This document shows, one piece after another, positions 15,430 through 64,000 of a stretch of 64,000 nt of DNA. Position 1 is the stretch's first letter. Each line of letters starts with the position of its first letter. The position numbers and the translations under genes are program-made. The stretch is from a virus. The notes under the pieces were generated by a model. The model was not told the origin of the DNA. It saw nothing but the letters and a program-made list of their open reading frames with translations, and did no database searches. The stretch spans positions 32,001 through 96,000 of the IMG/VR virus record IMGVR_UViG_3300044629_000431, one strand, 5' to 3'.

Positions 15430-15432
15430 ATT

Positions 15433-17361
15433 TTATTTCCTCTCTAGTTCTCCGTTAGAGTAGCTTGATGTATAGTAATCTCTTGTAAAAGTAACCCCAG
15501 AGATATCCTCTCCAGAAGAAATGACATCCTTAACCATATTTATGGTGCTATCTGAAATACTAAAACTTAAATATAGGTCACTTAAACCAACAACATCATT
15601 TGATTCTGGATATGCTTGAACCTCAATAATATTATTTTCTTTTTCTGTTGATATGATATTAATTGTGTTTATGGTAATTTCACCTTTGGTATAATCAATA
15701 ACCCCAGCAGAAGAAACTAAAACTCGATAACTTCCATCTGCATTTCTTTTAACGACAGATAGAACTCCTTTTCCACTACCATCTAACTCACCAGTTCCTG
15801 GAATTGTGTTTGGTGTATCAGTGAAATGAACCATATCTGGTTCATTGCTAATATAAAAACCAGTACTCTTAATATTATATCCGTCACAATTGATGTGAAA
15901 CTTATTACCAAAGCACAACTCATACTGTGCAAACTGATTTAATAATGCTTTCAGATTTCTACGTACTCTTACCTTCGTGATATTTGAAGTAATTGATCTA
16001 TCTGCATTATCAATAACTTGAAGTATTTTACTATATTTGAATCTTCCACCAAACTTATTCAAGTCAATGGAAGAAGCATAAGTATTCAATGCATTTGTAA
16101 CTGTGGTCTTTAAGTTATCTACGCTTGAAACTTGAGGTGCATTGTAGTAAATTGAGGAGTCAATCTCAACATACAATACTTTCAGATCGACAATTTCTTG
16201 GTTGATACCACTCAAAGAGTATTGCTTGAGTTTTGTTAGTATATTTCCCTTATCAAAGTCTGATAGATAGTCTCCATTTTTTGGTTTGATACTAATCAGA
16301 ACTTTTCCAAACTGTGGTGGATCTAACTCTTCTCCACCGACAACAGAGACAGACTCGGTGTTTGGATATATTTGCTGAATAATTGCCTCATAGTCTCTAG
16401 CAGTTACTGCTCTGTACTGAGCAGAATAGAGTCTTGGTGCAAAATATTTGACAGATGATACAGGTTCAATGTCACCACCATTCATTGCCTTCTGAATAGT
16501 AGTCATTGTTACTGAACTAGAAGGAATCGCAACGTTATTACTTGCGTCTCTTAATGAACCAGAGAAACTAAACTCAGATGGTCCATTACCTTCTTTTCCA
16601 TCAGTCACAATATAAGTGACAGTAACAACAGAACTGTTCTCTAACTTTTTACCAAACAGTCCGTCACCAAATAGAATTTCATACTTTTCGTCCTGAACTT
16701 CCTGAAGAAGATAAATTTCAGAAGTTCTTTCAACTCCAATGATATTATCGACTTTTGAGTATTCTCTTCCAAGACCACTATCGGAAGGTCCCTTTACATA
16801 AACAACAATGGTTGAAGTATCAATGAATGAGTTATCAAGAATAAAACGTTGATCCAGAGAACCATCTACAACAAATTGCTTTGTCAAGAACGTTCCCTGA
16901 TACACTTCAATTGGTGCATCTGTCGTACCAAATGTGGCAACTCCACCACTGATAGTGGTAGAGACGTTTTCTGGTATTGAGAAGGTATATGTGCTCTGTT
17001 CTGCCGTTCCAACACACACCAGACCCGCCTGCAAGGTCAATGTGGGACTTGTTGAGGTAGTTGGTACGTTAATAGTTACGTGCGCTCTTGCCGCTGTTCT
17101 AGAGCGTGGTGTGTAACCAATATTTCTTGCCAGTGAAACAACATTTTCTCTGAGAGTTGCAGAGTCCAGAAAGGACTCATTCACAATCATATTTGAGTTA
17201 AATGCTGTAATATATGTGTTATATGCTAACGTATCGATCAGAACAGAAAAGTTTGAACCCTCAAAGTCAAAGTCTGTAAAGTTGGAGTTCGCACGAAGAT
17301 AATCCTTGATGGATGTCTTGATCTGATCAAAATCGAGGTTGGTAAATTTAGTGAAAGGCAT
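15433..17361 (-). CDS. gp6: Baseplate wedge subunit gp6
   Basis: LDFDQIK..FTDFDFEGS, NESFLDSATLRENVVSLARNIGY, AQYRAVTARDY. Confidence 0.95.
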   Translation of the reverse strand: MPFTKFTNLDFDQIKTSIKDYLRANSNFTDFDFEGSNFSVLIDTLAYNTYITAFNSNMIVNESFLDSATLRENVVSLARNIGYTPRSRTAARAHVTINVPTTSTSPTLTLQAGLVCVGTAEQSTYTFSIPENVSTTISGGVATFGTTDAPIEVYQGTFLTKQFVVDGSLDQRFILDNSFIDTSTIVVYVKGPSDSGLGREYSKVDNIIGVERTSEIYLLQEVQDEKYEILFGDGLFGKKLENSSVVTVTYIVTDGKEGNGPSEFSFSGSLRDASNNVAIPSSSVTMTTIQKAMNGGDIEPVSSVKYFAPRLYSAQYRAVTARDYEAIIQQIYPNTESVSVVGGEELDPPQFGKVLISIKPKNGDYLSDFDKGNILTKLKQYSLSGINQEIVDLKVLYVEIDSSIYYNAPQVSSVDNLKTTVTNALNTYASSIDLNKFGGRFKYSKILQVIDNADRSITSNITKVRVRRNLKALLNQFAQYELCFGNKFHINCDGYNIKSTGFYISNEPDMVHFTDTPNTIPGTGELDGSGKGVLSVVKRNADGSYRVLVSSAGVIDYTKGEITINTINIISTEKENNIIEVQAYPESNDVVGLSDLYLSFSISDSTINMVKDVISSGEDISGVTFTRDYYTSSYSNGELERK

Positions 17362-17362
17362 T

Positions 17363-17764
17363 TTATCTTGTTGCCTCTAATATGAATGTAAACGCTTGTG
17401 TCGGAACATCTTGTCCAATAATATCAAATATTACGGTTACATTGAATGTATTCTCATCGGGTGATGGTTCAACATCCACTCGTGTATTTGTAACACGTGG
17501 TTCAAAGTTTCGAATCGTTGTAAGAATCTGGTCCTCAATAATTGCCGCAGTACCATAGTCAACAAATTCAAACAGACTTGAGCGTACTTCAGAACCCAAC
17601 AGGGAGTTAAAGAATCTCTCTGTTGGGATTGTTTCGACTAAATTTCTGACGGAACGACGAATTGCATTCTCATTCTTAAGAATTGGCAGATCCTTTGTAA
17701 CAGGATGAGGATCGAAGGACAAACTAATGTCCTTGAAGGCTCTTGATACTCTGGTAACTGCCAT
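17363..17764 (-). CDS. gp25: Baseplate wedge protein gp25
   Basis: FKDISLSF..HP, NENAIRRSVRNLV.T...ER.F, FEPRV. Confidence 0.93.
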   Translation of the reverse strand: MAVTRVSRAFKDISLSFDPHPVTKDLPILKNENAIRRSVRNLVETIPTERFFNSLLGSEVRSSLFEFVDYGTAAIIEDQILTTIRNFEPRVTNTRVDVEPSPDENTFNVTVIFDIIGQDVPTQAFTFILEATR

Positions 17765-49269: not shown

Positions 49270-50076
49270 CTATTTATTTTCATATTCGTCCATCAACTCT
49301 TTTGCAAGTTTCATAGAACGACGATGCATCATATATTTTACCACAGGATTTCTTGGATTGTGTAACAACCACCACTTTTGCTTCTCATAGTTAGCTTTTG
49401 CTAACTTAAGCACATAATAAAAAGCAGCAGCGACACTATCATCAGTTACGATGAAGTATGCCACTACTGTGAATACGATAAACCAAGCGTAATAAGTCAT
49501 CGTCTGATAGTTTTTAGATAGTCTAACACGTGCTCACGCACTGCCATCAATTCATGATAGCATTTCTGATTATGAGCACATTGACGAAGTTCGTGGTCTG
49601 GTTTATGAACACTTTCAATGAACAGATCAAGACCACGGTTCCATTTGACTTCAGGAGTTTCTTCCATAATGTGCCTTATAGTTACACTATTTAACCAAGA
49701 AATTGATCCAGACTGGAGACCGATGCGCCTTTTGCGGACTTTTGAATGTAGGTTTTTGCGGACTTGTAGTTGTTGGCAACGTGAACCTGTTGCCCATTGT
49801 GAATAATCATAAACTTTTTACCAAATGGAACTGCTGCCCACATACCATCTTTGGTCACATAACCTTGAGGATCTCCTGGTTTTGCATCAAGAATACCAGG
49901 ACGGTTGATGAAAGGTTTTTGAAAATGTTCCGTCATCCGAATACTGCAGTGACGCCAATGACTTTAGCACTTGGGTTACGAGCAAGTGCAGTTCGCTTTG
50001 CATCATTGTAGTCTTTTGCTTCAACGATCTCATCAAAGACCTTACCAGCAATGTAGAGTTGGACTTTGCAGCGCAT
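49270..50076 (-). other. Four small conserved genes (49270-49500, 49497-49667, 49691-49936, 49933-50076)
   Basis: ORF track plus manual translation (MEETPEVKWNRGLDLFIESV..., MRCKVQLYIAGKVF...). Confidence 0.65.
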
Positions 50077-50115
50077 TGGAGTTTCTCCTGATGTGTGGAT
50101 AGTATAGCAGAAAAA

Positions 50116-51351
50116 TCAGCGTTTGACAACGCTGATGGCAGGAAGACCCTGCTGAAACACGGTGTCCACCACCGCTTGGACCTTCTTAGCGGTGCTGATG
50201 CCCACAGAAGAGTAGACAGGGATACAGACCAACCCAAAGGACTTGGTGTAGTCCTGAAGGGCACCAGGGGCGATCCTGCCGCTGCTGAGACCCTCTGCAT
50301 CGTCCTTGTGCAGGCGGATCACCCGTCCGATGGTCTGGGAGATGCCGATGTAGTCCATGGACCGCATAAACAGCACTGCCTCCAGACCAGACACGTTGAT
50401 GCCCTCGCTCAGAATGCTGTGGTGCAGAACCACAAACTTCTTAGAGTCATCCTTGCCCCAGGCACTCAGAGTGTCGAAGAACACCTCACGGTTGACCTTC
50501 TGACCGTCGATGATAGCACCAGTCTTGGACGTGATATACATCCAAGAGAAACCACGCTCCTCCAGTTGAGTGCAGAAGTCAGTCTGAGAAACCAGAGAAA
50601 CGATCTGCTTGGTTGCTTTAGAGCAGATCAGAACCTTGCCAACCTCTTGAGCATCAATAGTCTGAATGAGGTTCTCACAGTCAACGTCAGCGACGATCTG
50701 ACCCTTGCTGAGCATCTCAAACTGCTGCACCACAACCTTAGGAGGAACGATGAAACCACCGTCCACCAGTTCAGGAGCAGGAACATTGCAGATCACGTTG
50801 CCATAAACGGCAGCGTCATTCATACCAGGTTTGGAAATAGTAGCAGAATGCTTAGGAGTAGCAGTGAAGAAATAGCAGCGGTCAGCATTAGCAGAGAAGT
50901 GCTCCGTAGCAGGGAAAAAGTGACGCTGAACGCTGTTGTGTGCCTCATCAAAGTAAATGGTATCAACGTGAATATCTGCCTGCTGAAGACGCTGCAGGGA
51001 GTTATAGGTGGTAAAAATGAGTTTGTGACCCTTCGCTTGCTCATACCAGGCACGAATCACATTGGGGCGAGTGCTGCTGAAGTGGTGCGTCTCACCAGAA
51101 TGGACGTGCAGAACCTGAGCATTTGTGATAAACTCAAGGAACTCGCTGGACAACTGCTCTGCCAGGAGGATGCGCGGAGCACAGACTACAATAGTCTGAG
51201 GAGTATTTTTCAGAAACTCACGAATAGCATCAAAGATAGCGATGTTGGTCTTGCCGCCGCCAGTCGGGATAATCACCTGACCCTTGCGGTGTTGCAGCAG
51301 GGCATCCAGAGCACGTTGCTGGTGGGGACGGAGTTGAATCACTGACCTCAT
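50116..51351 (-). CDS. Superfamily 2 DEAH helicase (type III Res-like)
   Basis: LRPHQ, PTGGGKT, DEAH, TATP, SEGINV, QTIGRVIR; early promoter module at 51365-51420. Confidence 0.9.
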   Translation of the reverse strand: MRSVIQLRPHQQRALDALLQHRKGQVIIPTGGGKTNIAIFDAIREFLKNTPQTIVVCAPRILLAEQLSSEFLEFITNAQVLHVHSGETHHFSSTRPNVIRAWYEQAKGHKLIFTTYNSLQRLQQADIHVDTIYFDEAHNSVQRHFFPATEHFSANADRCYFFTATPKHSATISKPGMNDAAVYGNVICNVPAPELVDGGFIVPPKVVVQQFEMLSKGQIVADVDCENLIQTIDAQEVGKVLICSKATKQIVSLVSQTDFCTQLEERGFSWMYITSKTGAIIDGQKVNREVFFDTLSAWGKDDSKKFVVLHHSILSEGINVSGLEAVLFMRSMDYIGISQTIGRVIRLHKDDAEGLSSGRIAPGALQDYTKSFGLVCIPVYSSVGISTAKKVQAVVDTVFQQGLPAISVVKR

Positions 51352-51421
51352 TGCGTATAGGACTATTATAGCACTAAAAAAGGGGGTCGGAACCCCCTTG
51401 TGCCAGTTGTAAAACTGTCTA

Positions 51422-53896
51422 TTAGAACAATGTGAAACTTGTAGAACCTACACCAGGAACAGTGAACACTAACTGATTGCCCACCGTTGTAATTTGAACA
51501 GCAGTTCCAATACCACTTAAGAAACCATTGGTTGCTGTTACTATACCAGCACTTACCGTAACACCAGTTCCAACTCTAAGAGATGATGTTGTTGTAACAC
51601 CAGATACATTAAGTTGATCCAACTCAGTGTGTCCCAATACATCAAGTCCACCATTTGCATCAATAAATCCTTCAATTATGGTGTCACCGGTATTGGCGAC
51701 AACAAAGAATTTATCACCACCTGAGGGATTTCTAACAGCAAAGTCGTCATCAACATCGACCGTACCATTAAATTCAGAATTACCATTAATAGTAAGGTTT
51801 CCAAATGTAGAAACACCAGATACATTCAATTGTTTAGTAAAGAATGTAGGACCAGTAACTGTTGTAATGCCACTGAAAGTAGAAATACCTCCGCCTGCGC
51901 CAGGGAAAACATTCAATGAGGTGCAAGTTACAATACCACCAATTACATTGGAAGCATCAGTTGCGAAACCAGTAAAGTTAGCATAAGTTGCAATACCAGA
52001 TCTTTCAGCATAAGAAATTGTTCCGCTTGCCGCCATTTGAACCCAAGCGGAACCAGTATAATACTCAGGAACTGCAGTGGTGGTATTAAATACGACTGCT
52101 CCTCTGATATTATCAGTCGAAGTATCTAAGTTATTTCTCTGAGTTGTATTCAGACGAGGAAGTATCATAAAGCGATACGCATCGCTGAAATATCCAACTC
52201 CTGCTTCAGAGAAATCGACAGCAGCCTTTGGTCGTGTGGTTCCAACACCAACAGATCTTATAAGAACTCTCTTGCCAATAGCATTAATATCAATTTGTGG
52301 ATATGATGCTGTACTACCAACACCAATAAATGATGAAGAAGCAACTAAACCTAAACCACCAACTAGATCTTGATTAGTACCCAGTTGAAGAGAATAGTTG
52401 GTAGTATCAGTTCCGATAGCTACATTTGACAAACTTGCAAGATTAGTTACATCAATATCATAAAATGTTGATACCCCAATAGTATTATTGAGATTTGCAC
52501 TAATGCCACCAAGAACATTTAAATTATTTGTGGTAAAGTTTCCACTAACACCTAAGTCTCCATATAAAGTTGAGTCTCCAACAACAAATAAGTCATCACC
52601 AATGTAAAGATCTTGAGTAATTGTTGAAGTTCCAACAACGTGCAACTCATGGTCTGGATTTGTTTTTGCAATACCCAGTCTACCACCATAAGTCAGAGTC
52701 ATTTTTGCACTCTGATCTTGACCATAAACCCAGTTGAAGTTACCGGTTCCAAGACCAGCAGCACCACGATGAATATAATAGTTTACGCTTCCTCTATCGT
52801 AATTGACAAGATCTAACGATGTTTGCCCACTAAAGGTATCTGCTAAGTTACCAAAACGAATCTCACCACCCTGTTGACCTCTAGTTAAAGTTCTAGCAAC
52901 ACCAACATAAGATTCTTGAGTGCTGGTTAACTGAACTCCACCAACACCATTCTTTACAACATGTATTTCTGCAGTTGGAGAATGAGTATTCAGACCAATG
53001 TTATTTTCAACATAGAGTCTATTTGAAACAGAAGCAATTCCTGTTGTTGAGTTATTTGATACAGTTATGTTTGATGCTGTTACAAAACCCACAATAATAT
53101 CAGGGGTTCCTGTTAATGAACGAGCAGTAGATGCTATTCCAGTTACGTTTCCAGTTACATCACCAGTTACATTACCAATTAAGTTTCCTACAAAACCACC
53201 ACTAGATGTCGTGACTCCAGTTACAACAAGATTATTAGTTCTTACAAATGGGGAAGTTAAAATGCCACTAATATTAATATTTGATGCAAGGCGAGCATTG
53301 TCTAATGTTCCTGCAGAAATATTAGATGCATTTAATGCTGTAACTCCAGCTCCAGAACCAACATAACTTTGAGCAGTAACAATACCTGTCGAGTAGATAT
53401 TACCAGTCGAGTCAATTCCAACACCTGTTGCACCAACATTTGCAAAGATTCTGCTTTGGTCAGAACCACCAACTTGGAAAGGATAGAATGGAGATACTGT
53501 GCTGACTCCAACAAATCCTTGTGCATAAATGCTCGTAAAACCTAGACCAATATCTACATCTAACCATTGAGATGTTGGTAGGTTAAGAAGTCTTCCACCA
53601 TCACCATAATAAGTTACGATTCCAGCGACACCAGTAACAATTCCAGACTGACTAACTGAAACTATACCTGCTCTGATACCACCACTAAACGTAGAAACAC
53701 CCGATGCTCTAATATTTGCAGCAAAAACTTCCGTAGCAGTGACTAGCCCGACTACCTTTGCAGTTCCTCTTACATCAAGAAGTTCGGTTGGAACTGATGT
53801 ACCGATTCCAACCAAACCATTAGGGTTTACGATTAAATTGTCATCATCTACCTGTACACCATTACGAAAGTTAAAAGTTTTTCTAATATTAGCCAT
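51422..53896 (-). CDS. Tail fibre-like structural protein
   Basis: 824 aa with many VGIGT..P..L.V.G and GVST/GIVT repeats; ATAAATA late promoter at 53916-53922. Confidence 0.8.
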   Translation of the reverse strand: MANIRKTFNFRNGVQVDDDNLIVNPNGLVGIGTSVPTELLDVRGTAKVVGLVTATEVFAANIRASGVSTFSGGIRAGIVSVSQSGIVTGVAGIVTYYGDGGRLLNLPTSQWLDVDIGLGFTSIYAQGFVGVSTVSPFYPFQVGGSDQSRIFANVGATGVGIDSTGNIYSTGIVTAQSYVGSGAGVTALNASNISAGTLDNARLASNINISGILTSPFVRTNNLVVTGVTTSSGGFVGNLIGNVTGDVTGNVTGIASTARSLTGTPDIIVGFVTASNITVSNNSTTGIASVSNRLYVENNIGLNTHSPTAEIHVVKNGVGGVQLTSTQESYVGVARTLTRGQQGGEIRFGNLADTFSGQTSLDLVNYDRGSVNYYIHRGAAGLGTGNFNWVYGQDQSAKMTLTYGGRLGIAKTNPDHELHVVGTSTITQDLYIGDDLFVVGDSTLYGDLGVSGNFTTNNLNVLGGISANLNNTIGVSTFYDIDVTNLASLSNVAIGTDTTNYSLQLGTNQDLVGGLGLVASSSFIGVGSTASYPQIDINAIGKRVLIRSVGVGTTRPKAAVDFSEAGVGYFSDAYRFMILPRLNTTQRNNLDTSTDNIRGAVVFNTTTAVPEYYTGSAWVQMAASGTISYAERSGIATYANFTGFATDASNVIGGIVTCTSLNVFPGAGGGISTFSGITTVTGPTFFTKQLNVSGVSTFGNLTINGNSEFNGTVDVDDDFAVRNPSGGDKFFVVANTGDTIIEGFIDANGGLDVLGHTELDQLNVSGVTTTSSLRVGTGVTVSAGIVTATNGFLSGIGTAVQITTVGNQLVFTVPGVGSTSFTLF

Positions 53897-53923
53897 CGTG
53901 TATGGTATTTTTAGTTATTTATC

Positions 53924-55099
53924 CTATTTCTTAATTGCTTTAAAAATAATGCAGGGCGACGCTGCATCTTGTCTAGTAGATGCACCACTAACATATTCAT
54001 CGTTTACGTCTTCTTTCATTGGAAAAACATTGTAAAACAAGAAATCAATTAAATCACGATGTCTTCTACCAAGTGGTGTCAAAATATCATACATTTGCAC
54101 ATTATTTCCCATTTTTTCAATAACTTTTTCCCAGAAATTAATGGAGGTCCCATCTTTAAATCTCAAAGTCAGGTTTCCATTGTTACCCTTTTTATTGACA
54201 AAAAATTCATGCACTTCATTAATAAAAAATGTTTTTAAGTGAATTGTAGAATCCGTTTGTGGAATAATATGACCATCAGGAACTGAAAAATTATACTGTT
54301 CAAGTCTACGAATAAATGCTGGGACGTTCATTAACATTCCTAGACTTTGATCAGAGTATCCATATTCCCTGGATATTGGTGACATCACATTAAATGGGTT
54401 ACGTTGGTTTTTAAACCTATCCCAATGCCTTTGCTCCTCTTCAGTCCAATAGTTCACAGTATATTTTTTCTCACCAGTTCGTAAATCGTAAGTTTTTTCT
54501 GCTGTAGATTCAATCATATACTCGGTATATCTATCAACATCGGACATAATTTTACTTTCCTGAGATATGGTCATTACCTTTTCAAAATCAACTGTTAAAT
54601 CAAATTCAGATATTACGCCAGGCATTGCAGAACCTGGATGCTTGCTAAACAAAGTTCCACCTGGTTTTAATACCCTATAGCATTCTTTTATCATTTGCTC
54701 AACATCTTCAGCATAACCTATTGTTTCTAAAAACAATAACGTGTCAAAATAGTTGTCTTCAAATGGAAGTTTGTCCCAACTTGCTATTTTAAATCTTGAT
54801 TCATATCCTGGATTTCTTTCTTTAGCACATTTTATTTGCTCTTCAGAAATGTCAATACCATAATATTTGACAGATTTTTTCTTTTTAATAAGTCTTTTAA
54901 AAAAATATCCTCCACCACATCCACACTCCAGTACATATTGTCCCATTTTGGACATTTTAATAATATTATCTACATCTTGATCAATAAATGTACTAGGATC
55001 AGAGTCTAGATCAACTAAAAGTGCTCCATTGTAATAGTTACCTTCATCATTACTCAATAAAGGTGCAATAGCATTATAGTATTCAAGAGTATTGTCCAT
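53924..55099 (-). CDS. Class I SAM-dependent methyltransferase
   Basis: VLECGCGGG, GIDIS..QI, LPFEDNYFD, RVLKPGG; ATAAATA at 55111-55117. Confidence 0.9.
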   Translation of the reverse strand: MDNTLEYYNAIAPLLSNDEGNYYNGALLVDLDSDPSTFIDQDVDNIIKMSKMGQYVLECGCGGGYFFKRLIKKKKSVKYYGIDISEEQIKCAKERNPGYESRFKIASWDKLPFEDNYFDTLLFLETIGYAEDVEQMIKECYRVLKPGGTLFSKHPGSAMPGVISEFDLTVDFEKVMTISQESKIMSDVDRYTEYMIESTAEKTYDLRTGEKKYTVNYWTEEEQRHWDRFKNQRNPFNVMSPISREYGYSDQSLGMLMNVPAFIRRLEQYNFSVPDGHIIPQTDSTIHLKTFFINEVHEFFVNKKGNNGNLTLRFKDGTSINFWEKVIEKMGNNVQMYDILTPLGRRHRDLIDFLFYNVFPMKEDVNDEYVSGASTRQDAASPCIIFKAIKK

Positions 55100-55113
55100 T
55101 TTTTTATTTTTAT

Positions 55114-55854
55114 TTATTGAATATATGGATTGGTGGAGTTATATGTTCTATAGAATTTGATAGTTGGTTTTTGATCTTTATAGAGCTTTACTTTGAAATG
55201 AAAATGGAACTTATTTGGAGTGTATCCATCAAAAATACGTTCATACTTATTAAAAATAGTTTTATTGATATTTGGAAAACACTCAAGCAATATATTTTTT
55301 GTATTTAAAAAAGTATCAACTGAATAGTTTGGTAGTAGTTCTACATTGATATTATCATGAATTACATTTCCATTTTTATCAAAGTCAAAAGCATATAAAA
55401 CATTATATGTGCCACCACCAAGAACTCTTGCTAGGTCTACAGCATCACTTTTCATCTTATGATCTATATTATTAAACTCACCAAGCAAAAACCCACATTT
55501 AAAATCTGTGTCTTTACCAATATTATCAATTAATTTGGTAAAATAACTGTATCTATATTTTGTATTAAGTCCAAATGACTTATTAATTAAATCATATTCT
55601 TTTTCGGTGACACCATTTACAGATAAATGAAAATATGGAGACTCAATAAACTTATTCTGTGGTGTTATTGCTTTGTGAAATGTTCTCAGACCTTGAACTT
55701 CATTTAGTTCATTTGTCAGAATATTGTAGATATAGTTGTAGTCATTTTTTATTTTCGACTTTTCTTTAAAAGAAACTTCACTATAGTCTAAAAAACAATA
55801 ATGATATGAAACATGGTCAGAGGTCAAGTCCCTCTCAAAAAGATAATAAGTCAT
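55114..55854 (-). CDS. Unknown protein, paralog of 58772-59491
   Basis: Shared ER..S...SYHY, FD..G...D....EL.P and H.K.K......IK.YR motifs. Confidence 0.75.
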   Translation of the reverse strand: MTYYLFERDLTSDHVSYHYCFLDYSEVSFKEKSKIKNDYNYIYNILTNELNEVQGLRTFHKAITPQNKFIESPYFHLSVNGVTEKEYDLINKSFGLNTKYRYSYFTKLIDNIGKDTDFKCGFLLGEFNNIDHKMKSDAVDLARVLGGGTYNVLYAFDFDKNGNVIHDNINVELLPNYSVDTFLNTKNILLECFPNINKTIFNKYERIFDGYTPNKFHFHFKVKLYKDQKPTIKFYRTYNSTNPYIQ

Positions 55855-56540
55855 AATTGATTGTTATGAATACCAAGCCAGAATACAATTGTATATCTAT
55901 TTCCAGAAGTAATAGGAGTTACTCCATGATAGTACATCCAGTTACTGGGGAAAACAATAACATCACCAGTTTTAAAACCAAATGTTTTTCCTATTGATGG
56001 AAAATCTAAATATCCCCCCTCATAGTTCTCATTTAAGTAAACACATACTGTCAGTAACCTAGAGAAGTTTAGTGACTCTGCATAATGATCATGATGTATT
56101 CTAAAAAAGTCATCTTTAGAATAGTCTAAAATGTGGGAATCGCTGATATTTAATCTATCACCATAGGCATAATAAAATGGTCTAACATCTCTTACATATC
56201 TTCTACCAACTTCTGCAGATATGTCACGAATAATTTTATTTGAAAATGTTTTGAACTCATCATCAACAGCAAAAAGATTGACATATTCACCTGTCCTTAA
56301 CAGGTCTGTCATTGGACTATCAAACTCATTCTTGTGCTTCTCATTATGAATTTTTTGAGAAAATTCCTCACAAATTTCTTTTTTTACCAAATTTGTATAA
56401 ACTTTCACATAATCATCCATGTTTAAATTAAATTTGTTATCTTTAACTTCGGATAACATTTCAAGGTATTCCTTATTAAATCCATTCCTATACTCTTGAT
56501 TATTAAATCTAGAATATAAATTTGTAAAAGTATTATGCAT
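55851..56540 (-). CDS. 2OG-Fe(II) oxygenase, prolyl 4-hydroxylase-like
   Basis: HHD, RLLTVCVYLN..YEGG, VFPS...Y.HGV.P.TSG.RY. Confidence 0.9.
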   Translation of the reverse strand: MHNTFTNLYSRFNNQEYRNGFNKEYLEMLSEVKDNKFNLNMDDYVKVYTNLVKKEICEEFSQKIHNEKHKNEFDSPMTDLLRTGEYVNLFAVDDEFKTFSNKIIRDISAEVGRRYVRDVRPFYYAYGDRLNISDSHILDYSKDDFFRIHHDHYAESLNFSRLLTVCVYLNENYEGGYLDFPSIGKTFGFKTGDVIVFPSNWMYYHGVTPITSGNRYTIVFWLGIHNNQL

Positions 56541-57039
56541 CTTCTACACAAATATCAATACTAATAAATTCGAAATCTTTATCTGAGTTATTTTTTGCAG
56601 AATGTTTTATATGTCTTACATCAAAGAAGTATAGTTCTCCTTTTTTCCAATTAATTTCTTCATCGCCATAGTAAAACATTGCCTCAGTATCCATTAAAGG
56701 AATGTGTGCTCTAAAGAATTCTTTATGCCAATAGCAAGTATCAACATGCTCTCCAACATGCTGACCTGATGGAACTGTTATTTTTGAGAATGCCAGGATA
56801 CGATCATCATTAGCAAACTTTTCAATTGTTTCTGTAGAATACTTATCTTTTGGAATGGTTGCTTCTTCTCTTGGAATCTTCTTGAATGCATAAAGAACGC
56901 ATCCACTGTCATCATCAATATTCCAAGAAATTTTCATATTTGTTTTTGGACTAAAGTATTCATCCAAAATCAACGGTTTTAACTCATTAATTTTATTATA
57001 AAAGTCAACATAATAAGGTCTAGAAAAATCAATAGTCAT
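56533..57039 (-). CDS. Aspartyl/asparaginyl beta-hydroxylase-like oxygenase
   Basis: HVD, RAHIPL, W..G....FD....HSA.N. Confidence 0.8.
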   Translation of the reverse strand: MTIDFSRPYYVDFYNKINELKPLILDEYFSPKTNMKISWNIDDDSGCVLYAFKKIPREEATIPKDKYSTETIEKFANDDRILAFSKITVPSGQHVGEHVDTCYWHKEFFRAHIPLMDTEAMFYYGDEEINWKKGELYFFDVRHIKHSAKNNSDKDFEFISIDICVEDA

Positions 57040-57647
57040 AATTTCTCATAAGCTCCCATATCAATATTTAGAACCTTCAAGTAAAGGGGGTCATTTGTAA
57101 AGTGTGAACCTAGATATTCTCTATCATTCTCATAAAGAATGTCAAAACAAAGGAAACAAAGATCTACGTCTTTTGACTTGTTCGTTCCACTATGAGAGTC
57201 GTAAACAAAATCAAGTATAAAGGGTTTTCCTACTTCAACTTTAATAGTTCCAAAACTTTCAGCAGTAATATAACTTTCATCAGCGGTAATAGGAACTAAA
57301 ATTCTCCAAAGGTTTTTGCCATAATAAGGAGGGTCTACATGCTCCTTAATGTCAGAACTTGCTGCAAAAGTATTCAAACTCACAGTTGGAATATTCTCAT
57401 CTAGAATAATATCCTTAAGTTTATCACTATAAAAGTTTTTAAGTTGAAGTCCATCCGTTGGAGACTTGATAACTCTAAATCTCCAGTCTCCATATTCATA
57501 TTTTGATGGAACTTTATATTCAGGAACTTCTGTGAAGTCTTGTTTTAAAACATCTGGAGTTACATCAAGAATTTTTTGAAAGTAACTCTTTACATACTTA
57601 GACTCTAGATCTAAAAAGGGCTTATTCTGGGGAGTCGTCGATTTCAT
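57036..57647 (-). CDS. Aspartyl/asparaginyl beta-hydroxylase-like oxygenase
   Basis: HVD, RILVPI, G....LD....HSG.N. Confidence 0.75.
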   Translation of the reverse strand: MKSTTPQNKPFLDLESKYVKSYFQKILDVTPDVLKQDFTEVPEYKVPSKYEYGDWRFRVIKSPTDGLQLKNFYSDKLKDIILDENIPTVSLNTFAASSDIKEHVDPPYYGKNLWRILVPITADESYITAESFGTIKVEVGKPFILDFVYDSHSGTNKSKDVDLCFLCFDILYENDREYLGSHFTNDPLYLKVLNIDMGAYEKL

Positions 57648-58779
57648 AACTTACATCTAGATTAACAACACGTGATTCTGAAGTATCTTCTGCTACAGCA
57701 TCACTTGAGAATGATGTTGAGTATGAAAGTGTAGTAGAAGAATCTGTAGTTGATGTCACACCAACACCATCATAAGATATTTTTTCTTCACAAGGAACTT
57801 GAACAAATTCAGCTTGTTCTGGGTGTTGTGAAATATAGTTTTCTCTATACTCAGAATATCTCTGCATGTATGGAGCATTTGGATGCGTAGGATCAATTTG
57901 AGACTTTTCAATACCTTCGTTATATGTCTTATTGATATGAGGAAGTTCGGAAATATGATTGATAGCATCGGCAACTTTTTTGAACACAAATATCATACAC
58001 TCATGATATCTGTTTGGGGCATAATTTTGAGTCTCATTCTTTCTAATATGTTCAATATAAGATGGATGTGCTTCACAAAATTCATCAGATGAACAGAAAG
58101 TTTCATTATAAGTCATTACATCATATTCTGGGACTTCAATTTTTTCAACTTCAAAACCATTCTCAAGAAAACTTTCTTCTATGAGACTTTTGTTTGGAAG
58201 CATACCAAGAGATGCCTCACTATATCCATATTCTTTTTCTATGTCAGCAAACTTTTCTTGATATTTTGAATCAAGTTCTTCATCATGAACTACTTTAATT
58301 GGGTTTTTAATAATTACTCTACCACCAATTTTAAGTCCTGTTGATATAGTCTTAATAAGAGTATCAAGATTTGTTGTGTAACCAATACTTTCAATAAAGT
58401 AAACCGCATCAAAATACGGTTCAGCCATTACAAGTTCATTCATATCTTTACAGAAAAAAGATGATGCATAACTTTCTGCAGATTTTGATGCGTTATCAAT
58501 TTGCTTTTCACAGCAATCTACACCAAGATATCTACAATTTTTGTAGTTTGGATGAGTTTTTAAGAACTTATGAAACTGACCATTACCGCAACCAACATCG
58601 GCAATGAATGAATCGTGATTAAGTTCCCCCAAGTCTGCTAAGTACTGATAGTTTTGTTCCCTAAGACCTAAAGATCCATACTTTTCACTTTTAATCAAAG
58701 CAACTTGATATCCCTGAGGATACTTTTCGTTGATTACATCAGCAAGAGAATCATAATAAGATACGGTTGTTTCATCCAT
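57622..58779 (-). CDS. Class I SAM-dependent methyltransferase, paralog of 53924-55099
   Basis: IADVGCGNG, GVD, FIESIGY, shared EYGYS..SLGML.N. Confidence 0.88.
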   Translation of the reverse strand: MDETTVSYYDSLADVINEKYPQGYQVALIKSEKYGSLGLREQNYQYLADLGELNHDSFIADVGCGNGQFHKFLKTHPNYKNCRYLGVDCCEKQIDNASKSAESYASSFFCKDMNELVMAEPYFDAVYFIESIGYTTNLDTLIKTISTGLKIGGRVIIKNPIKVVHDEELDSKYQEKFADIEKEYGYSEASLGMLPNKSLIEESFLENGFEVEKIEVPEYDVMTYNETFCSSDEFCEAHPSYIEHIRKNETQNYAPNRYHECMIFVFKKVADAINHISELPHINKTYNEGIEKSQIDPTHPNAPYMQRYSEYRENYISQHPEQAEFVQVPCEEKISYDGVGVTSTTDSSTTLSYSTSFSSDAVAEDTSESRVVNLDVSYEIDDSPE

Positions 58780-59491
58780 AGTAAAATTCTGGAATGTTTA
58801 CGTTGATTGATCTGTAATACTTTATGTTTTTAATTTCCCCGTTTTCAATTTTAAACTTAACGTGGGAAAACTTTTTGAAGTTTAAAAAATATCTTTCAAA
58901 TGGATCTGTATTGATACCATAAATCTTCAAAATATTTATAAAGCCCTTTGAACCATCAATAGTATTTTGTGGATATAACTCTAAATGAACTGTGTCGTAA
59001 TTGAGTTTTCCTCCACATCCATCAAAACCCAAACAATAAAAAATTGGATTGAACTTAGATATAATTTCTCTGGTCATATCTAGAGTATTAGTTCCCATAT
59101 CAAATTCATCTAAATTTGCTTTGGGAAATATTTCTCGATGAGGAATATCATCTCCAATATCATCTAGATTAAAAGTAAAAGAGTTTTGATTTCTAATAGG
59201 GATAATTCCTAGTTTATTCACCTCATCGTATTTACTCTGGTCCTTCAGAGTAAAGTTTACAAAAGTTCCCCTGCGAGAAATATTCAAAAATAGAATATGA
59301 AAATTTATATTCTCAAACTTTTCTTTGATAGTTGCCTCTATTTTAAATAATTTTGAACTATTTTCACGTTCTGGTATTTGAGATAAACTCTTATAACCAT
59401 AATGATATGAAAAATATGGTTGAGAGTAAATCTCCCGTTCTATTCCAATACCAAAATCAGAATGTAACTGTACTACCTGCTGTTGTTCCAC
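58772..59491 (-). CDS. Unknown protein, paralog of 55114-55854
   Basis: Motifs shared with the paralog. The track start overlaps the upstream adhesin gene by 35 nt, so the exact start is uncertain. Confidence 0.7.
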   Translation of the reverse strand: MEQQQVVQLHSDFGIGIEREIYSQPYFSYHYGYKSLSQIPERENSSKLFKIEATIKEKFENINFHILFLNISRRGTFVNFTLKDQSKYDEVNKLGIIPIRNQNSFTFNLDDIGDDIPHREIFPKANLDEFDMGTNTLDMTREIISKFNPIFYCLGFDGCGGKLNYDTVHLELYPQNTIDGSKGFINILKIYGINTDPFERYFLNFKKFSHVKFKIENGEIKNIKYYRSINVNIPEFYYG

Positions 59492-60461
59492 TTGTCAATA
59501 CCACATAATAAGCACTACTTCTACGACGAATTGCATCTCCACCAGAACCTCCACTACCTCCACCACTCGCGCCCCATCCTCCACCTGGTGATCCAGAATT
59601 AGAGCAAATAGTTCCTTGAGGATATCCTCCACAACGTCCACCACCGCCGCCGCCAGAACCAGGAACGGTGCTTGTGTCCTCATCACCATCTCCACCAGAT
59701 CCACCACCACCTGCCGGGAAGTTTGATGGTGGTGCGCCGCTGCCCCCGCCGCCTGCACCACCACCTTTTCCACCACCTCCACCAGATCCACCAATAGAAG
59801 TATTACTTACGTTACAGCAATAACATTCATTAAATGATTGTGTTTTGCCGCCACTACCGCCTCCACCACCTCCACCACCAAGAATACGGTTATTATTTTT
59901 AAGATAGATATTTGAAGCAACAGAAAAAGCCGTTCCACCTGGAGATCCAGATCCTCCACCATCTCCACCCTTTCCACCTTTTCCATAAATTGCATAGTCA
60001 TTAGTCAAATAGCAAGTTGTATTTGATCTAGAACCTTGTGGAATTGTCAAACCATAGTTTGATGTTAGAGTTGCTCTACAATTACCAGTTGTTTCTGCAT
60101 CAAAAAATACCGTATTGTTGCTATTAGATTTTAATGCTTCATTTTCAATCGTATTAACATCAATTGAAGCATTATTTCCACTTAACTGGACTACCGCTTG
60201 TCTAGCATAATAGTATACTTTATTGTAAAAATTAGTAAGAGCAATAGTTGTCCCAGCTCCAGCAACAGGAACATTATCAAAATGAGATGCTTTTGTTGGA
60301 TGACTTGAATCAGTTCTTGCTTGATCAGTGCATTTATTTTTCTTCAAATATGTAGAACCATAATAAAACTCATTCATTGCAACCTGACCCTGTGGACCTA
60401 AGTTTGTATACTCTGTTCTTAGATCCGATAAAGCAATTTGTCCGCTTGATTGTAAGGTCAT
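59457..60461 (-). CDS. Gly-rich tail-tip adhesin (T-even gp38-like)
   Basis: MTLQSSGQIALSDL N-terminus, then N...I.G.GG.GG poly-Gly blocks separated by variable loops. Confidence 0.7.
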   Translation of the reverse strand: MTLQSSGQIALSDLRTEYTNLGPQGQVAMNEFYYGSTYLKKNKCTDQARTDSSHPTKASHFDNVPVAGAGTTIALTNFYNKVYYYARQAVVQLSGNNASIDVNTIENEALKSNSNNTVFFDAETTGNCRATLTSNYGLTIPQGSRSNTTCYLTNDYAIYGKGGKGGDGGGSGSPGGTAFSVASNIYLKNNNRILGGGGGGGGSGGKTQSFNECYCCNVSNTSIGGSGGGGGKGGGAGGGGSGAPPSNFPAGGGGSGGDGDEDTSTVPGSGGGGGGRCGGYPQGTICSNSGSPGGGWGASGGGSGGSGGDAIRRRSSAYYVVLTSGTTAGSTVTF

Positions 60462-61111
60462 TTTTGTATTGAAAATGTATATGGTCCTGATTTGAATTTT
60501 GATGGAACAAAATTCATAGAGATAGAGACTCTTCCATTACCGATATTTATATCATACCCATGATCTAAATGAGATGACCAAAGAACCAAATCACCTTCTT
60601 CAATAAAGTCACAAACTATTTCTTTTTGATTGAATGCTGTTGTTTCCGCGATGTTCAAATCAAAAAATGGTTCTACGTGAAGATTAAGAAATGGATTCAA
60701 GAATATAAGTGTAGAATGAATAGATGGAATATAGTTTACATAATAAGTTGCAGATACAAATGAGTTTCCGTGACTATGAAATCTTTGAAACCCATTTTTA
60801 TAGCAAGTGTTTATCCAGCAGTCAGTAATAATCAAATCATCCTCAAGGTCATATCCCATCACCCCCCTCACAAATCCATATGAAGACTCAAGCAAAAACT
60901 CTTTAAAGTCTTCATCATTGATATAATCAAAGAAACCTTTTTCTAGTTCGGAAGAATTAAAGAAATGTTTAAGTTCTGGAGAAGTAATACCATCAACTTC
61001 TAGTTCTTTATTTTCTTTAATAAAGTCTAGAATTTTATCTTTAAACTCATTACGCTTTGGATATTGTACCTTTGCAATAGGAACTGGAAATAAAGGATAT
61101 ACGCCTAGCAT
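60458..61111 (-). CDS. 2OG-Fe(II) oxygenase (TIGR02466-like)
   Basis: LFP.PI, CWIN, HSH.NS..S..YY, EGDL.L.S..L.H, R.SIS.N. Confidence 0.88.
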   Translation of the reverse strand: MLGVYPLFPVPIAKVQYPKRNEFKDKILDFIKENKELEVDGITSPELKHFFNSSELEKGFFDYINDEDFKEFLLESSYGFVRGVMGYDLEDDLIITDCWINTCYKNGFQRFHSHGNSFVSATYYVNYIPSIHSTLIFLNPFLNLHVEPFFDLNIAETTAFNQKEIVCDFIEEGDLVLWSSHLDHGYDINIGNGRVSISMNFVPSKFKSGPYTFSIQK

Positions 61112-61124
61112 ACTTTAAAAAGAT

Positions 61125-61162
61125 AATACCAGTACTATAAACTAGCACTGGTATTTTGTCAA
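61125..61162 (-). promoter_or_regulatory. TTGACA-17-TATAGT promoter overlapped by a 9-bp inverted repeat
   Basis: AATACCAGT (61125) and ACTGGTATT (61147) flank the -10 box. Confidence 0.7.
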
Positions 61163-64000
61163 CCTATTTTCTTTTCCAGAGCATCTACCTTAGCAGAGAG
61201 TTCCTTGATAGCTTCGATAAGCAGAGGAACAATCTTCTCATACTGAACAGTGATGTAGTCTCCACTTACAGGTGCTGGTTTGACTGCCTCAGGAAGAACT
61301 GCCTGAACTTGTTGTGCAGAAACACCAACGTGAGTTTCTTCAGTATTAAAACCAAGTGAACCAGCGGTTTCATTGAATGTATAAGTGAAACCACTTAACT
61401 GAAGAACTTTATCGAGTGCATTCTCAAGAGGTTGAATGTTTGTCTTGAGTCTTTCGTCAGAAACGAAAGCAATGACATCACCAGTTGCACTGAACTCACC
61501 AGTGACTCTAGCACCATCAGAACGGGTATTGATTCTAACTGTGTTGTCATGATAGAGGTTGATTGCACCATCAGCGACGGCATCAATCATGCTTTCGCCA
61601 GTATACTTCTGAATGTATACTCCACCATTTCCACGAATGAATAGTGAACCAGTTCCTCTATCATCAATATAACTGTTCGAACCATCATGGAATAGATCAA
61701 GGTCATCACTATCACCAAGATACAGGTGATCGTTATCACCAAATCTTATGGTTCCATTAGCAGTAATATTTCCAGTAATCGTTGCAACTCCAGCAACGTT
61801 GAGGTTTCCACAGATATTCAGATTCTTAGCAATACCTGCACCACCAGCAACAACTAAGGCACCAGTCGTGCAACTGGTAGACTCGGTGGTTCCAGCAATA
61901 GTTTGAACGCCACCAATGTTCAGGTTCTTCTCAACACCTAGACCACCTTCAAGAACCAGAGAACCAGTATCCTTGCTTGTTGATTGTGTTGTTCCATTTA
62001 CTGTGACATCACCACCAACATTCAGGTTCTTTTCAATACCAACACCACCATCAACAATCAGAGCTCCAGTGTCTTTGTTTGTTGATTGAGTTGTATTTGT
62101 AATTTCTACAGTATTGTTAACTTTCAGAGCACCATTGATTTGAACATCATCATTCATCTTCAACTCTTGGTTGAAGGTGACAGGACCATCAAACTGTGAA
62201 AGAATCTGACCAGAGTTTCCACCTTCAACAAGAATTCTTTCCTTGACAATAACTTCATCAAATACAACAGAAAGACGTGAAGGATCTTGTCCAGTTATGG
62301 TTGGAACTGGAATATCAAAAGTAATTTGCTCACCAGACTGTGCAGAATACTTGGTATTTCCAATAAAGAAGTCGCCATCGCTGTTCATACCAGTGTAAAT
62401 AACAGAACCGCAAGAACTTTCTTGAGACTGAGCAAGGAAGTCTTCTCTTTCAGTCAGAGTTCTGTTCTGAACCTGTGGTAGACCAGTTGAGTAGTTACCT
62501 GGTCCATATCCCATATATTCAAAAGTATGACCAGATGCACGAACAATCGATGGTCTACGAAGTTCAATAGGTACGGGTTTGATCTTGCGAATCATAGACC
62601 CTGAAGTATGGTTCTCTTTCAGAGTACCCATCGCTCCACGAATGACCTGGATTTCATCGTTTCCAGAACCAGACAGCGTGCTGCTGGTGATTCTCATAAT
62701 CTCATTATTGATTTGAATATAAGAACCAAGTGGGAATCTTCTTGTGGTTCCAATACCAGCATTTGGTACGCTTACCTTGAACTGAGTATCATTTGTAATA
62801 GTTTGTCCAAGAGTCAGAACTTCATTCTGATAGAGAGAAACACCTCTAGTTCCAAGATTTTCACCAAGTGAATCTGATGTTGCTTCGTTTGCAGAAAGTG
62901 CGTGCTTTAAGAGTTTTACTGAAGCAGGAATACTCTTTCTCGTTTTGGATGTGAATGATGTTGGTGAAATAAGTTCATTAACAACAAAGTCTCCAAGATT
63001 ATTATGAGAAGAGTCAAGAACTCTAAACTTATTACCTGCTACAAGACCGTGAGGAGTTCCACAAACAAAAGTCGAAATACCCGTTGCTGAATCGTAAGAT
63101 GGAGCAGAGCTAACATTGATTGAAGGGGCAATGTTAACGAAGTACTGACCTACAACAATACTTGGATCTCCAGAAGTTTGACCAACGGCAATTTGATTCT
63201 TAGCAGGAATATCAAGAACTCTATAGTATCCATCTGTGACTGTACCAAGTCCAGTAAACTGAACTGAGTTTCCAATAGATGTTGAAATACCAGAAGTTGC
63301 AATGGTAATAGCAGCACTTGGAGAACCACCAATTTGGTTGCTATCAAGATATAGTGTTTCACCAGTGGTGTATCCGGAACCACCAGTAATAATATCTAAG
63401 GAAGTAACTGAACCACCAGCAGATACAACTACCTTTGCAGTTGCACCATCCCAGTTTGTAAGAGTATTTTCATTATAAAGTTTGACGTTATAGTAGGTTC
63501 CTGGATTATGACCAGTTCCAGCAGTCAATGCATTGTAAGTTACAACACCATTCAGTTGATGCTCTCTGTTAAAGGTAACAGTGGTAATACCAGAAGAGGA
63601 GGTTGTGATGCCAGTTACAATTGGACTTAAACCAAAGTAATGGAAGAACTTATCAACTGTTTCTCTAGTGATACTCTTTCTCAGATCGTTAGTTACGGTC
63701 TTACCAAGAGGATCTCTGTAGGCAAAAGTGACCGATGCCGCAGGGTTCTCATTTACATTATCCTTATCCAACTGAGGATAAAGATCGACAACACTCTGAG
63801 AATACTTAAGGTTGGTAAACTCAGTTTGAATTGCATTAGAAGAGTTTAACAGATAAACGTGATATACACCATCTTGTGTATTGTAGATGTATGGTGTGAT
63901 AACCTCACTTCTGTAAACAAAGAAGTTTCCTTTCAGGTCGTTTCTTTCAAAGCGAGGAAGTGAAACCGTTCTGTTATTTGTATTATTAGTAAATGCACCT
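61159..64000 (-). CDS. Long tail fibre with a C-terminal peptidase S74 intramolecular chaperone (5' end beyond the window)
   Basis: Frame stays open to 64000; three TQST..TGAL.V.GG.GI.KNL repeats; SDERLK..GVSAQ.V..VLPEAV..Y..IVPLLIEAIKEL. Confidence 0.9.
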   Translation of the reverse strand, partial: GAFTNNTNNRTVSLPRFERNDLKGNFFVYRSEVITPYIYNTQDGVYHVYLLNSSNAIQTEFTNLKYSQSVVDLYPQLDKDNVNENPAASVTFAYRDPLGKTVTNDLRKSITRETVDKFFHYFGLSPIVTGITTSSSGITTVTFNREHQLNGVVTYNALTAGTGHNPGTYYNVKLYNENTLTNWDGATAKVVVSAGGSVTSLDIITGGSGYTTGETLYLDSNQIGGSPSAAITIATSGISTSIGNSVQFTGLGTVTDGYYRVLDIPAKNQIAVGQTSGDPSIVVGQYFVNIAPSINVSSAPSYDSATGISTFVCGTPHGLVAGNKFRVLDSSHNNLGDFVVNELISPTSFTSKTRKSIPASVKLLKHALSANEATSDSLGENLGTRGVSLYQNEVLTLGQTITNDTQFKVSVPNAGIGTTRRFPLGSYIQINNEIMRITSSTLSGSGNDEIQVIRGAMGTLKENHTSGSMIRKIKPVPIELRRPSIVRASGHTFEYMGYGPGNYSTGLPQVQNRTLTEREDFLAQSQESSCGSVIYTGMNSDGDFFIGNTKYSAQSGEQITFDIPVPTITGQDPSRLSVVFDEVIVKERILVEGGNSGQILSQFDGPVTFNQELKMNDDVQINGALKVNNTVEITNTTQSTNKDTGALIVDGGVGIEKNLNVGGDVTVNGTTQSTSKDTGSLVLEGGLGVEKNLNIGGVQTIAGTTESTSCTTGALVVAGGAGIAKNLNICGNLNVAGVATITGNITANGTIRFGDNDHLYLGDSDDLDLFHDGSNSYIDDRGTGSLFIRGNGGVYIQKYTGESMIDAVADGAINLYHDNTVRINTRSDGARVTGEFSATGDVIAFVSDERLKTNIQPLENALDKVLQLSGFTYTFNETAGSLGFNTEETHVGVSAQQVQAVLPEAVKPAPVSGDYITVQYEKIVPLLIEAIKELSAKVDALEKKIG

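Follow-up and report, generated by a model that had tools for sequence, protein, structure and literature searches.

Several described systems resemble in part the locus reported here, a block of nine closely packed genes, one for an adhesin and eight for enzymes, at positions 53924-61111 of a 64,000-nucleotide stretch of DNA (hereafter the window) taken from the IMG/VR virus record IMGVR_UViG_3300044629_000431. Cyanomyoviruses carry tandem arrays of 2-oxoglutarate (2OG)-Fe(II) dioxygenase genes, such as Syn9 gp41-gp54 (Iyer et al. 2010, PMC2938197), and in print these arrays have been ascribed to secondary metabolism or DNA repair and not to modification of the virion. In bacteria, the hydroxylases of beta-hydroxylase/phytanoyl-CoA-hydroxylase/sulfotransferase operons have been proposed to modify co-encoded tail-collar or collagen-like Gly-rich proteins (PMC2938197). 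Cyanobactin F-type prenyltransferases O-prenylate the Tyr of peptides through the open base of their barrel, the known targets of prenylation being Tyr, Ser/Thr, Trp, Arg and peptide termini, and AgeMTPT couples prenylation with methylation (PMC10496146). According to a recent report, a phage tail protein required for binding is modified by a methyltransferase of the host (PMC13445384). Finally, the gp37-gp38 tip of T2/S16/PP01-type phages (6F45, 9V85; PF05268) offers the nearest likeness to the adhesin of the block. We consider the chances about even that this block is a phage-encoded, late-expressed set of tailoring enzymes that would prenylate, methylate and hydroxylate its gp38-type adhesin or the tip of the fibre.

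The window belongs to a single 146.5-kb contig (GC 38.8%), which its UvsW-type helicase marks as that of a T4-like cyanomyovirus; among cultured phages, the Synechococcus phages S-SCSM1 and S-SKS1 come nearest by the helicase protein (66-68% identity, 68% for S-SCSM1). The nine open reading frames (ORFs) that fill the block lie on the minus strand, as do all the other features of the window whose coordinates are given below unless stated, and their order from 5' to 3' is O5-gp38-A-MT-Ha-Hb-P4H-A'-MT' (g1-g9). Apart from the adhesin gene, there are two genes for proteins with a prenyltransferase (PT) barrel fold (A and A'), two for methyltransferases (MT and MT') and four for oxygenases. From g1 towards the downstream fibre gene, consecutive genes overlap by 4, 35, 8, 26, 4, 8 and 4 nt and are then separated by gaps of 14 and 27 nt, a packing that leaves no room for a small precursor ORF or for a scaffold-building gene. 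The GC content is 0.28-0.34 within the block, with the exception of the stretch of Gly codons in the adhesin gene (0.51), and 0.37-0.43 in the flanks. The initial annotation had described the gene order, the overlaps, the AT-richness and the flanking fibres just as we found them from ORF coordinates, GC content and family assignments; its count of eight genes is right for the enzymes and falls one short of the block, which has nine genes with the adhesin.

The Gly-rich protein in the block, which the initial annotation had taken for a tip adhesin, is a gp38-type tip adhesin as judged by its profile and predicted fold (g2, 59457..60461, 334 aa). The profile of its family matched 9V85 (PP01 gp38) with an E value of 5e-6, and when its AlphaFold (AF2) model, with a predicted local distance difference test score (pLDDT) of 83, was compared with the PDB by Foldseek, the only matches at E<=0.001 were PP01 gp38 (9V85, E 5e-8) and S16 gp38 (6F45_D, E 1.6e-6). 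Precomputed PF05268 matches were found on relatives of g2, and the g2 of the window itself scored none even at E<=5. The protein has an N-terminal docking region and a polyglycine-rich domain, and its gene comes after a fibre gene, all as in the gp37-gp38 tip; in contrast to that tip, the fibre here carries a self-cleaving S74 chaperone domain at its end, one of the loops between glycines is an invariant Cys-rich ECYCC and eight enzyme genes surround the adhesin gene. HHpred had previously revealed a gp38-like ORF in S-SRM01, a cultured cyanomyovirus from fresh water (PMC8557907), so that the adhesin type alone is not new. DNA and protein searches of the cultured-phage collection gave no match to the whole block, to gp38 or to A, the low-complexity filter being a possible cause in the case of gp38.

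Protein A (g3, 58772..59491, 239 aa) starts 35 nt inside the end of the adhesin gene, and A' (g8, 55114..55854, 246 aa) is its paralogue (26% identity, E 2e-8). The AlphaFold model of A (pLDDT 90.7, predicted template modelling score 0.87) has, according to DSSP, ten strands arranged as five hairpins with helices between them, in agreement with the ABBA fold, an antiparallel barrel of ten strands built from five alpha-beta-beta repeats. In a Foldseek search of the PDB, all the listed matches at E<=1e-4 were ABBA prenyltransferases. With VIA-align, A gave Z values of 10-11.7 over 194-229 residues against indole, cyanobactin and Orf2-type enzymes, 131 chains scored Z>=8 and the best 50 were all prenyltransferases. 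The best structural matches were the indole prenyltransferases IptA, MpnD and DMATS, and the peptide-prenylating enzymes PagF, LimF, KgpF, DciF and PatF were among the matches as well. Language-model features of the protein atlas gave weak leads to the same prenyltransferase families, with scores <0.9. Thus, the PT-barrel fold of A is established at the level of the predicted structure, and the 'possibly prenylation' of the initial annotation was borne out as far as the fold of A and A' is concerned.

At the sequence level, A and A' did not belong to PF11468, PF11991 or PF19156, and the profile of A found no PDB prenyltransferase. A had 45 close clusters in a large protein collection, none of them named. 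When 1.84 billion representative proteins were searched with a profile, 17 matched; all those with a readable context lay in this cassette, none was linked by sequence to a known prenyltransferase family, and no sequence relatives of A or A' were detected outside this phage group. Nine polar residues (E18, S28, H30, E171, H210, K212, K224, Y226 and R227) were invariant in A and A' even where identity falls to 20%, a pattern that suits a ligand or catalytic site; E18, H30, E171, H210, K212, K224, Y226 and R227 sit on strands of the A model in an alternating arrangement. The alternating H-x-K and K-x-Y spacing on adjacent strands may recall the diphosphate sites of ABBA enzymes, whose barrels are lined with basic and Tyr residues that bind the diphosphate and which have a catalytic Glu. 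A DDxxD-like DDIGD in A was rejected as a motif, as it was not conserved. Taken together, these data make A and A' candidate prenyltransferases whose family membership by sequence is not established. They would resemble the cyanobactin F-family (PagF, LynF, TruF1, LimF, KgpF) and AgeMTPT in the PT-barrel fold, in the pairing of a prenyltransferase with a class I methyltransferase and, as proposed here, in acting on ribosomally made substrates. They differ from the F-family in having no sequence similarity to it, a shorter length (239-246 versus about 290-300 aa) and a single helix per repeat, from AgeMTPT in that the PT-barrel and methyltransferase are encoded by separate genes instead of being fused, and from cyanobactin systems in that no protease, precursor or heterocyclase is present and the proposed substrate is a 334-aa virion protein.

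Foldseek comparison of the A model with BFVD also matched uncharacterised phage proteins (E 1.7e-4 to 4e-2, TM 0.44-0.51), from the marine cyanomyoviruses S-RIM44 (A0A1D7SG87), ACG-2014e (A0A0E3HAV3), S-CAM3 (A0A1D8KJE1) and S-CAM1 (A0A1D8KGK9) and, outside the cyanomyoviruses, from Agrobacterium phage Atu_ph07 (A0A2L0UZE7). Proteins with a predicted prenyltransferase fold may therefore be more widespread in phages than this cassette. In the ACG-2014e genome, a profile search was empty and two 50-kb feature tables had no coding sequence of the right size for the PT-barrel-like BFVD proteins.

The four oxygenases were assigned to three 2OG families. O5 (g1, 60458..61111, 217 aa) is of the PF13759 (2OG-FeII_Oxy_5)/TIGR02466 type, with a score above the Pfam cut-off; Hb (g6, 56533..57039, 168 aa) belongs to the Asp/Asn beta-hydroxylase family (PF05118, Asp_Arg_Hydrox, 30 bits for a cut-off of 22.6); and P4H (g7, 55851..56540, 229 aa) is a 2OG-Fe(II) oxygenase of the prolyl-hydroxylase type (PF13640, above the Pfam cut-off). 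The AspH-like cupin oxygenase Ha (g5, 57036..57647, 203 aa) had no Pfam match and was placed by its paralogy to g6 (BLASTP E 1e-8) and by their common PHROG (phrog_25655). The metal-binding residues were invariant across relatives in the four proteins: H149-x-D151...H205 (with R215) in P4H, H103-x-D105...H152 in Ha, H98-x-D100...H146 in Hb and H112, H114 and H184 in O5. MT (g4, 57622..58779, 385 aa) and MT' (g9, 53924..55099, 391 aa) are class I S-adenosylmethionine methyltransferases and paralogues of each other (27% identity); both matched Methyltransf_11/25/31 above the Pfam cut-off, and their motif I loops, D61-x-G63-x-G65-x-G67 in MT and E58-x-G60-x-G62-x-G64 in MT', were invariant. Because the catalytic motifs are invariant across relatives, all eight genes look like working enzymes under purifying selection. 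A class of substrate could not be tied to either methyltransferase, as neither matched any substrate-specific equivalog of NCBIfam. The top PDB match of MT', the lanthipeptide methyltransferase LahSB, covers only the generic Rossmann core and comes among sterol, lipid and small-molecule methyltransferases; nothing was found in the protein atlas for the C-terminal half of MT'. In MT, a conserved extension reaches about aa 306 and is followed by a variable, low-complexity tail of Ser, Thr and acidic residues (57622-57900), which is ~50 aa longer in locus L006; the MT of L009 was not aligned past aa 296.

Like the arrays of Syn9 and S-SCSM1, the locus belongs to a cyanomyovirus and has several unrelated 2OG families in a row in the fibre/uvsW region; unlike them, it lacks halogenases, includes PT-barrel proteins and methyltransferases, two of each, and is organised around a gp38 gene in strict adjacency. 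In S-SCSM1 (L052, MK867354.2 193205-226443), four 2OG-Fe(II) oxygenase genes, two tail-fibre genes and three more oxygenase genes lie beside the homologous helicase gene, which shows that the pairing of oxygenases and fibres occurs in a cultured marine relative. The bacterial hydroxylase operons also encode an AspH-type hydroxylase together with a Gly-rich or fibre-like candidate substrate; there, however, hydroxylation would be followed by sulfation, no protein of prenyltransferase fold takes part and the proposals are predictions only. The nearest cultured-phage homologue of g5, in Prochlorococcus phage P-HM1 (L017, GU071101.1 159037-159537), has nrd, purM and hli genes as its neighbours and is remote from the fibres.

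In order to follow the conservation of the block, loci from IMG/VR, JGI (Joint Genome Institute) metagenomes and other assemblies were compared; they are designated here by locus labels (L-numbers). The enzyme set was found in at least 12 lineages, down to about 30% identity, and always at this locus. Three gene orders with the same gene content were seen: that of the window; O5-gp38-A-MT-Ha-P4H-(O5')-MT'-A'-Hb; and a third one in L050. The genes form a proximal module (O5-gp38-A-MT) and a distal one (Ha-Hb-P4H-A'-MT') that recombine separately, as seen in L042 and L043, which have a common proximal part and different distal types. Throughout these rearrangements gp38 was immediately upstream of A in all 21 distinct contigs where this could be assessed, two further contigs agreeing, and MT was immediately downstream of A in 20/20; moreover, A overlapped gp38 or started within 38 nt of it even where the rest of the cassette was reordered. 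O5 intervenes between the fibre gene and gp38 in the window; it is absent from three lineages (the P0044 contig, L051 and L054), and gp38 directly follows the fibre in these and in L021. The flanking fibres varied among the cassette-bearing lineages, with identities of 32-85% for the upstream and 44-74% for the downstream one. The linkage of the enzyme set to the adhesin gene was found in every relative that carries the set. Occurrence of the enzymes away from fibre and adhesin loci, which would have spoken against the reading of the initial annotation, was not seen for the set; it was seen for single AspH-like homologues, which in marine phages such as P-HM1 lie in metabolic regions and are therefore not tied to fibre loci. 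The cassette of L050 (Ga0194115_10003064, 8800-17400) was the most divergent (29-44% identity); it contains two Hb-like genes, and its gp38 is extended at the C terminus.

A related lineage (L014-L016 and L021) has the same backbone with zero enzyme genes, which runs from a small ORF through a fibre of 2283 aa, gp38 and a fibre of 1095 aa to the helicase. We compared 12 cassette-bearing gp38s with the gp38 of enzyme-less L021. Fifty-three positions were invariant in the former, 35 of them Gly, and the only contiguous run of invariant non-Gly residues was E212-C213-Y214-C215-C216 (ECYCC, 59814..59828). The L021 gp38 differed at 4/53 of these positions, and three of the four differences fell within this run, which reads QCWFC (permutation p 0.005). 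The loop was entirely absent from a distant siphovirus gp38 without enzymes. As a check of the prediction, two further gp38s bearing ECYCC were inspected, and A adjoined gp38 in both. The comparison of adhesin loops with enzyme content that the initial annotation had proposed gave, then, a positive but thin result: ECYCC tracks the enzymes, against one close and one distant enzyme-less lineage. In enterobacterial gp38 the inter-glycine loops are hypervariable receptor contacts. An invariant Cys/Tyr loop at such a place would be unusual, and it would be expected of a site recognised or modified by enzymes; we regard the link between the loop and the enzymes as a lead, not proof. The X-Pro-Gly contexts of gp38 were also considered as a collagen-type site for P4H; this is unlikely, because their Pro residues are not conserved.

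The argument for late expression was built on the positional conservation of the late-promoter-like motif ATAAATA, not on motif counts. There were 13 matches to ATAAATA in the window, a total no higher than chance, and the full TATAAATA consensus was likewise no more frequent there than expected by chance. All 13 were on the coding (minus) strand, a bias suggesting a usable map of late promoters for the whole window. One copy (55111..55117), called a late promoter in the initial annotation, is ATAAATA and not the full TATAAATA; it is nevertheless conserved 16-18 nt before MT', together with an A-rich leader, whichever gene precedes and in both gene orders. Another (53916..53922) is found 24-26 nt before the downstream fibre gene in relatives, including cassette-less L021. 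The contexts of these two copies are otherwise unrelated, and both look functional. A third copy (60544..60550) lies inside O5, 89 nt before gp38 in nine sampled relatives and 94 nt before it in L050. It is weaker evidence, because it falls in conserved D-I-N codons and coding constraint may partly explain its conservation. At the other end, the sigma70-type promoter reported at 61134-61162 was confirmed: TTGACA-17-TATAGT (61162-61134) matches 11/12 positions of the consensus, the best match in the region. In the 47-nt gap before g1 (61125..61162), this promoter is accompanied by a 13-pair hairpin, which lies between and over the promoter hexamers, and then by a T-run. Both promoter and hairpin were kept in L002, L009 and L010, with one compensatory change of a stem pair in L010. 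From these signals, late synthesis of the enzymes, alongside the fibres, is probable, and additional early synthesis is possible.

A mechanism can be proposed on this basis. Late promoters, and in addition the early-type promoter at the head of the block, would drive joint production of the enzymes and the adhesin, and the substrate of the enzymes would be the adhesin itself or the fibre tip that it caps. The dimethylallyl diphosphate (DMAPP) or geranyl diphosphate (GPP) of the host would serve the two PT-barrel proteins as prenyl donor, methylation would fall to their partner methyltransferases, and hydroxylation of side chains to the AspH-like, P4H-like and PF13759 oxygenases. The leading candidate site would be the ECYCC loop (Tyr214, Cys213/215/216 and Glu212). 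A role in tuning adsorption, stability or host range is favoured, because the set is optional and some relatives do without it; such optional and recombining equipment fits tuning better than basic fibre assembly. The narrower proposal that the phage lipidates its own receptor-binding tip, with the PT-barrel proteins prenylating gp38, likeliest at ECYCC, and the methyltransferases and hydroxylases finishing the decoration, is offered tentatively, and we incline to doubt it. The initial annotation had called the pathway RiPP-like (ribosomally synthesised and post-translationally modified peptide); this description does not hold, since there is no leader/core precursor, recognition element or protease, and the enzymes would have to work on a whole structural protein. 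Searches of Pfam and NCBIfam matched no PqqD-like or protease family in the block, and the variable tail of MT is not a conserved core.

Several points weigh against the adhesin or the fibre tip as the substrate. A single phage group supplied all the cassette contigs, so the constant position may partly be inherited synteny. The block sits two genes from the UvsW-type helicase gene with four 2OG oxygenases of three families, and a hotspot of 2OG oxygenase genes near uvsW is known (PMC9146016). Searches of A and A' by sequence against Pfam, NCBIfam and the PDB gave chance-level matches only. Most ABBA enzymes use small aromatic molecules as substrates, and to our knowledge no ABBA enzyme acts on a folded protein. 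The enzymes are an optional insertion around gp38 and are dispensable for building its tip, because the L021 lineage has the same locus without them. The ECYCC contrast, which involves one close and one distant enzyme-less lineage, could be plain inheritance, and the gp38 tree was unresolved and did not settle whether the enzyme-less lineage nests among the cassette-bearing ones. The low GC fits a horizontally acquired island, and the conserved sigma70-type promoter at the head of the block suggests expression before that of the structural proteins. The last two features, like the functioning of the L021 locus without enzymes, would also agree with a small-molecule pathway in which the eight enzymes tailor a host metabolite, such as an aromatic amino acid or indole, and the adjacency to gp38 reflects a hotspot in the hypervariable fibre region. 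The indole prenyltransferases among the best matches of A point the same way, and the synthesis of ergot alkaloids starts with a prenyltransferase and then a methyltransferase. Cyanophage dioxygenase arrays have been read as secondary-metabolite pathways (Iyer et al., PMC2938197), and in S-SCSM1 runs of 2OG oxygenase genes occur among fibre genes with no gp38 or PT-barrel gene annotated there. This explanation is the main rival and a serious one; we nevertheless find it rather unlikely: the block has no scaffold, transport or resistance gene, A always comes directly after gp38 despite the reordering elsewhere, one oxygenase gene is wedged between fibre and adhesin, late-promoter motifs serve the enzyme genes and the ECYCC loop tracks the presence of the enzymes.

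The same constancy of gp38-A-MT, the tightest linkage of the locus, makes it improbable that gp38 is a mere neighbour and that the enzymes act on another macromolecule, be it the 1871-aa fibre, the 824-aa tail protein, baseplate parts or the host envelope, in superinfection block or release. Such a target would be in keeping with the position of the block between two fibre genes, each with its own late motif, with the general action of AspH- and P4H-type enzymes on proteins and, for the host, with an early promoter; however, both fibres vary widely among the cassette-bearing lineages, and nothing points to a site outside the cell, export signals and membrane segments not having been looked for. 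It seems very unlikely to us that the genes are unrelated neighbours, A and A' being non-catalytic barrels that serve as chaperones or adaptors of the adhesin and the oxygenases the common cyanophage complement, serving a different function such as nucleic-acid repair. T4-type fibres do need dedicated chaperones, T4 gp38 being one of them, and A has no sequence match to active prenyltransferases; the invariant Glu, His, Lys, Arg and Tyr of A and A', however, form the pattern of a ligand or catalytic site and not of a scaffold, and the enzyme-less relative manages without such a chaperone. Although 2OG oxygenases near uvsW were once interpreted as repair enzymes (PMC9146016), those of the block are of the AspH, P4H and PF13759 types, not AlkB, and the whole set stays together through rearrangements.

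On the 5' side, the block is flanked by a long tail fibre of 1871 aa, whose C-terminal 946 aa are encoded within the window (61159..63999); the ORF continues to coordinate 66774, beyond the window. A Peptidase_S74 self-cleaving chaperone domain was matched at aa 847-907 of the 946-aa fragment, and the homologues of this fibre have 1869-2401 aa, with PF13884. The 3' flank is a tail/fibre protein of 824 aa (51422..53896; phrog_3269, E 6e-91), past which a strong terminator-like hairpin (51399-51380) precedes the UvsW-type helicase gene. This last gene (window 50000-51500) has a GC content of 0.49-0.53, versus 0.39 for the genome, and a 416-aa ORF that spans all of it on the opposite strand is probably a by-product of its composition.

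The oxygenase arrays of cyanomyoviruses were already known; what is new here are the pairs of PT-barrel and methyltransferase genes, the strict juxtaposition of gp38, A and MT, and ECYCC as a candidate site. In the literature searched, no paper tied prenyltransferases to phage fibres or gp38, and none dealt with a viral ABBA prenyltransferase. If the product were a small molecule instead, the block would be a compact virus-encoded prenylation pathway, likewise undescribed in that literature. The substrates of cyanomyovirus 2OG oxygenases have been a puzzle since at least 2010; here such enzymes are locked to a defined adhesin gene with a named candidate site, which opens the old question to direct experiment. 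If prenylation of the tip proved true, A and A' would be without precedent both as ABBA-type prenyltransferases of a virus and as ABBA enzymes with a folded protein for substrate, gp38 would be the first prenylated virion protein of a phage, and a substrate would be supplied for the long-unexplained oxygenase arrays of cyanophages. If the adhesin is modified, by whatever chemistry, the PT-barrel proteins would represent a new minimal enzyme family that may act on whole proteins, and abundant aquatic phages would recognise their hosts by way of chemistry that enzymes make and that the sequence of the receptor-binding protein does not reveal, with consequences for the prediction of host range.

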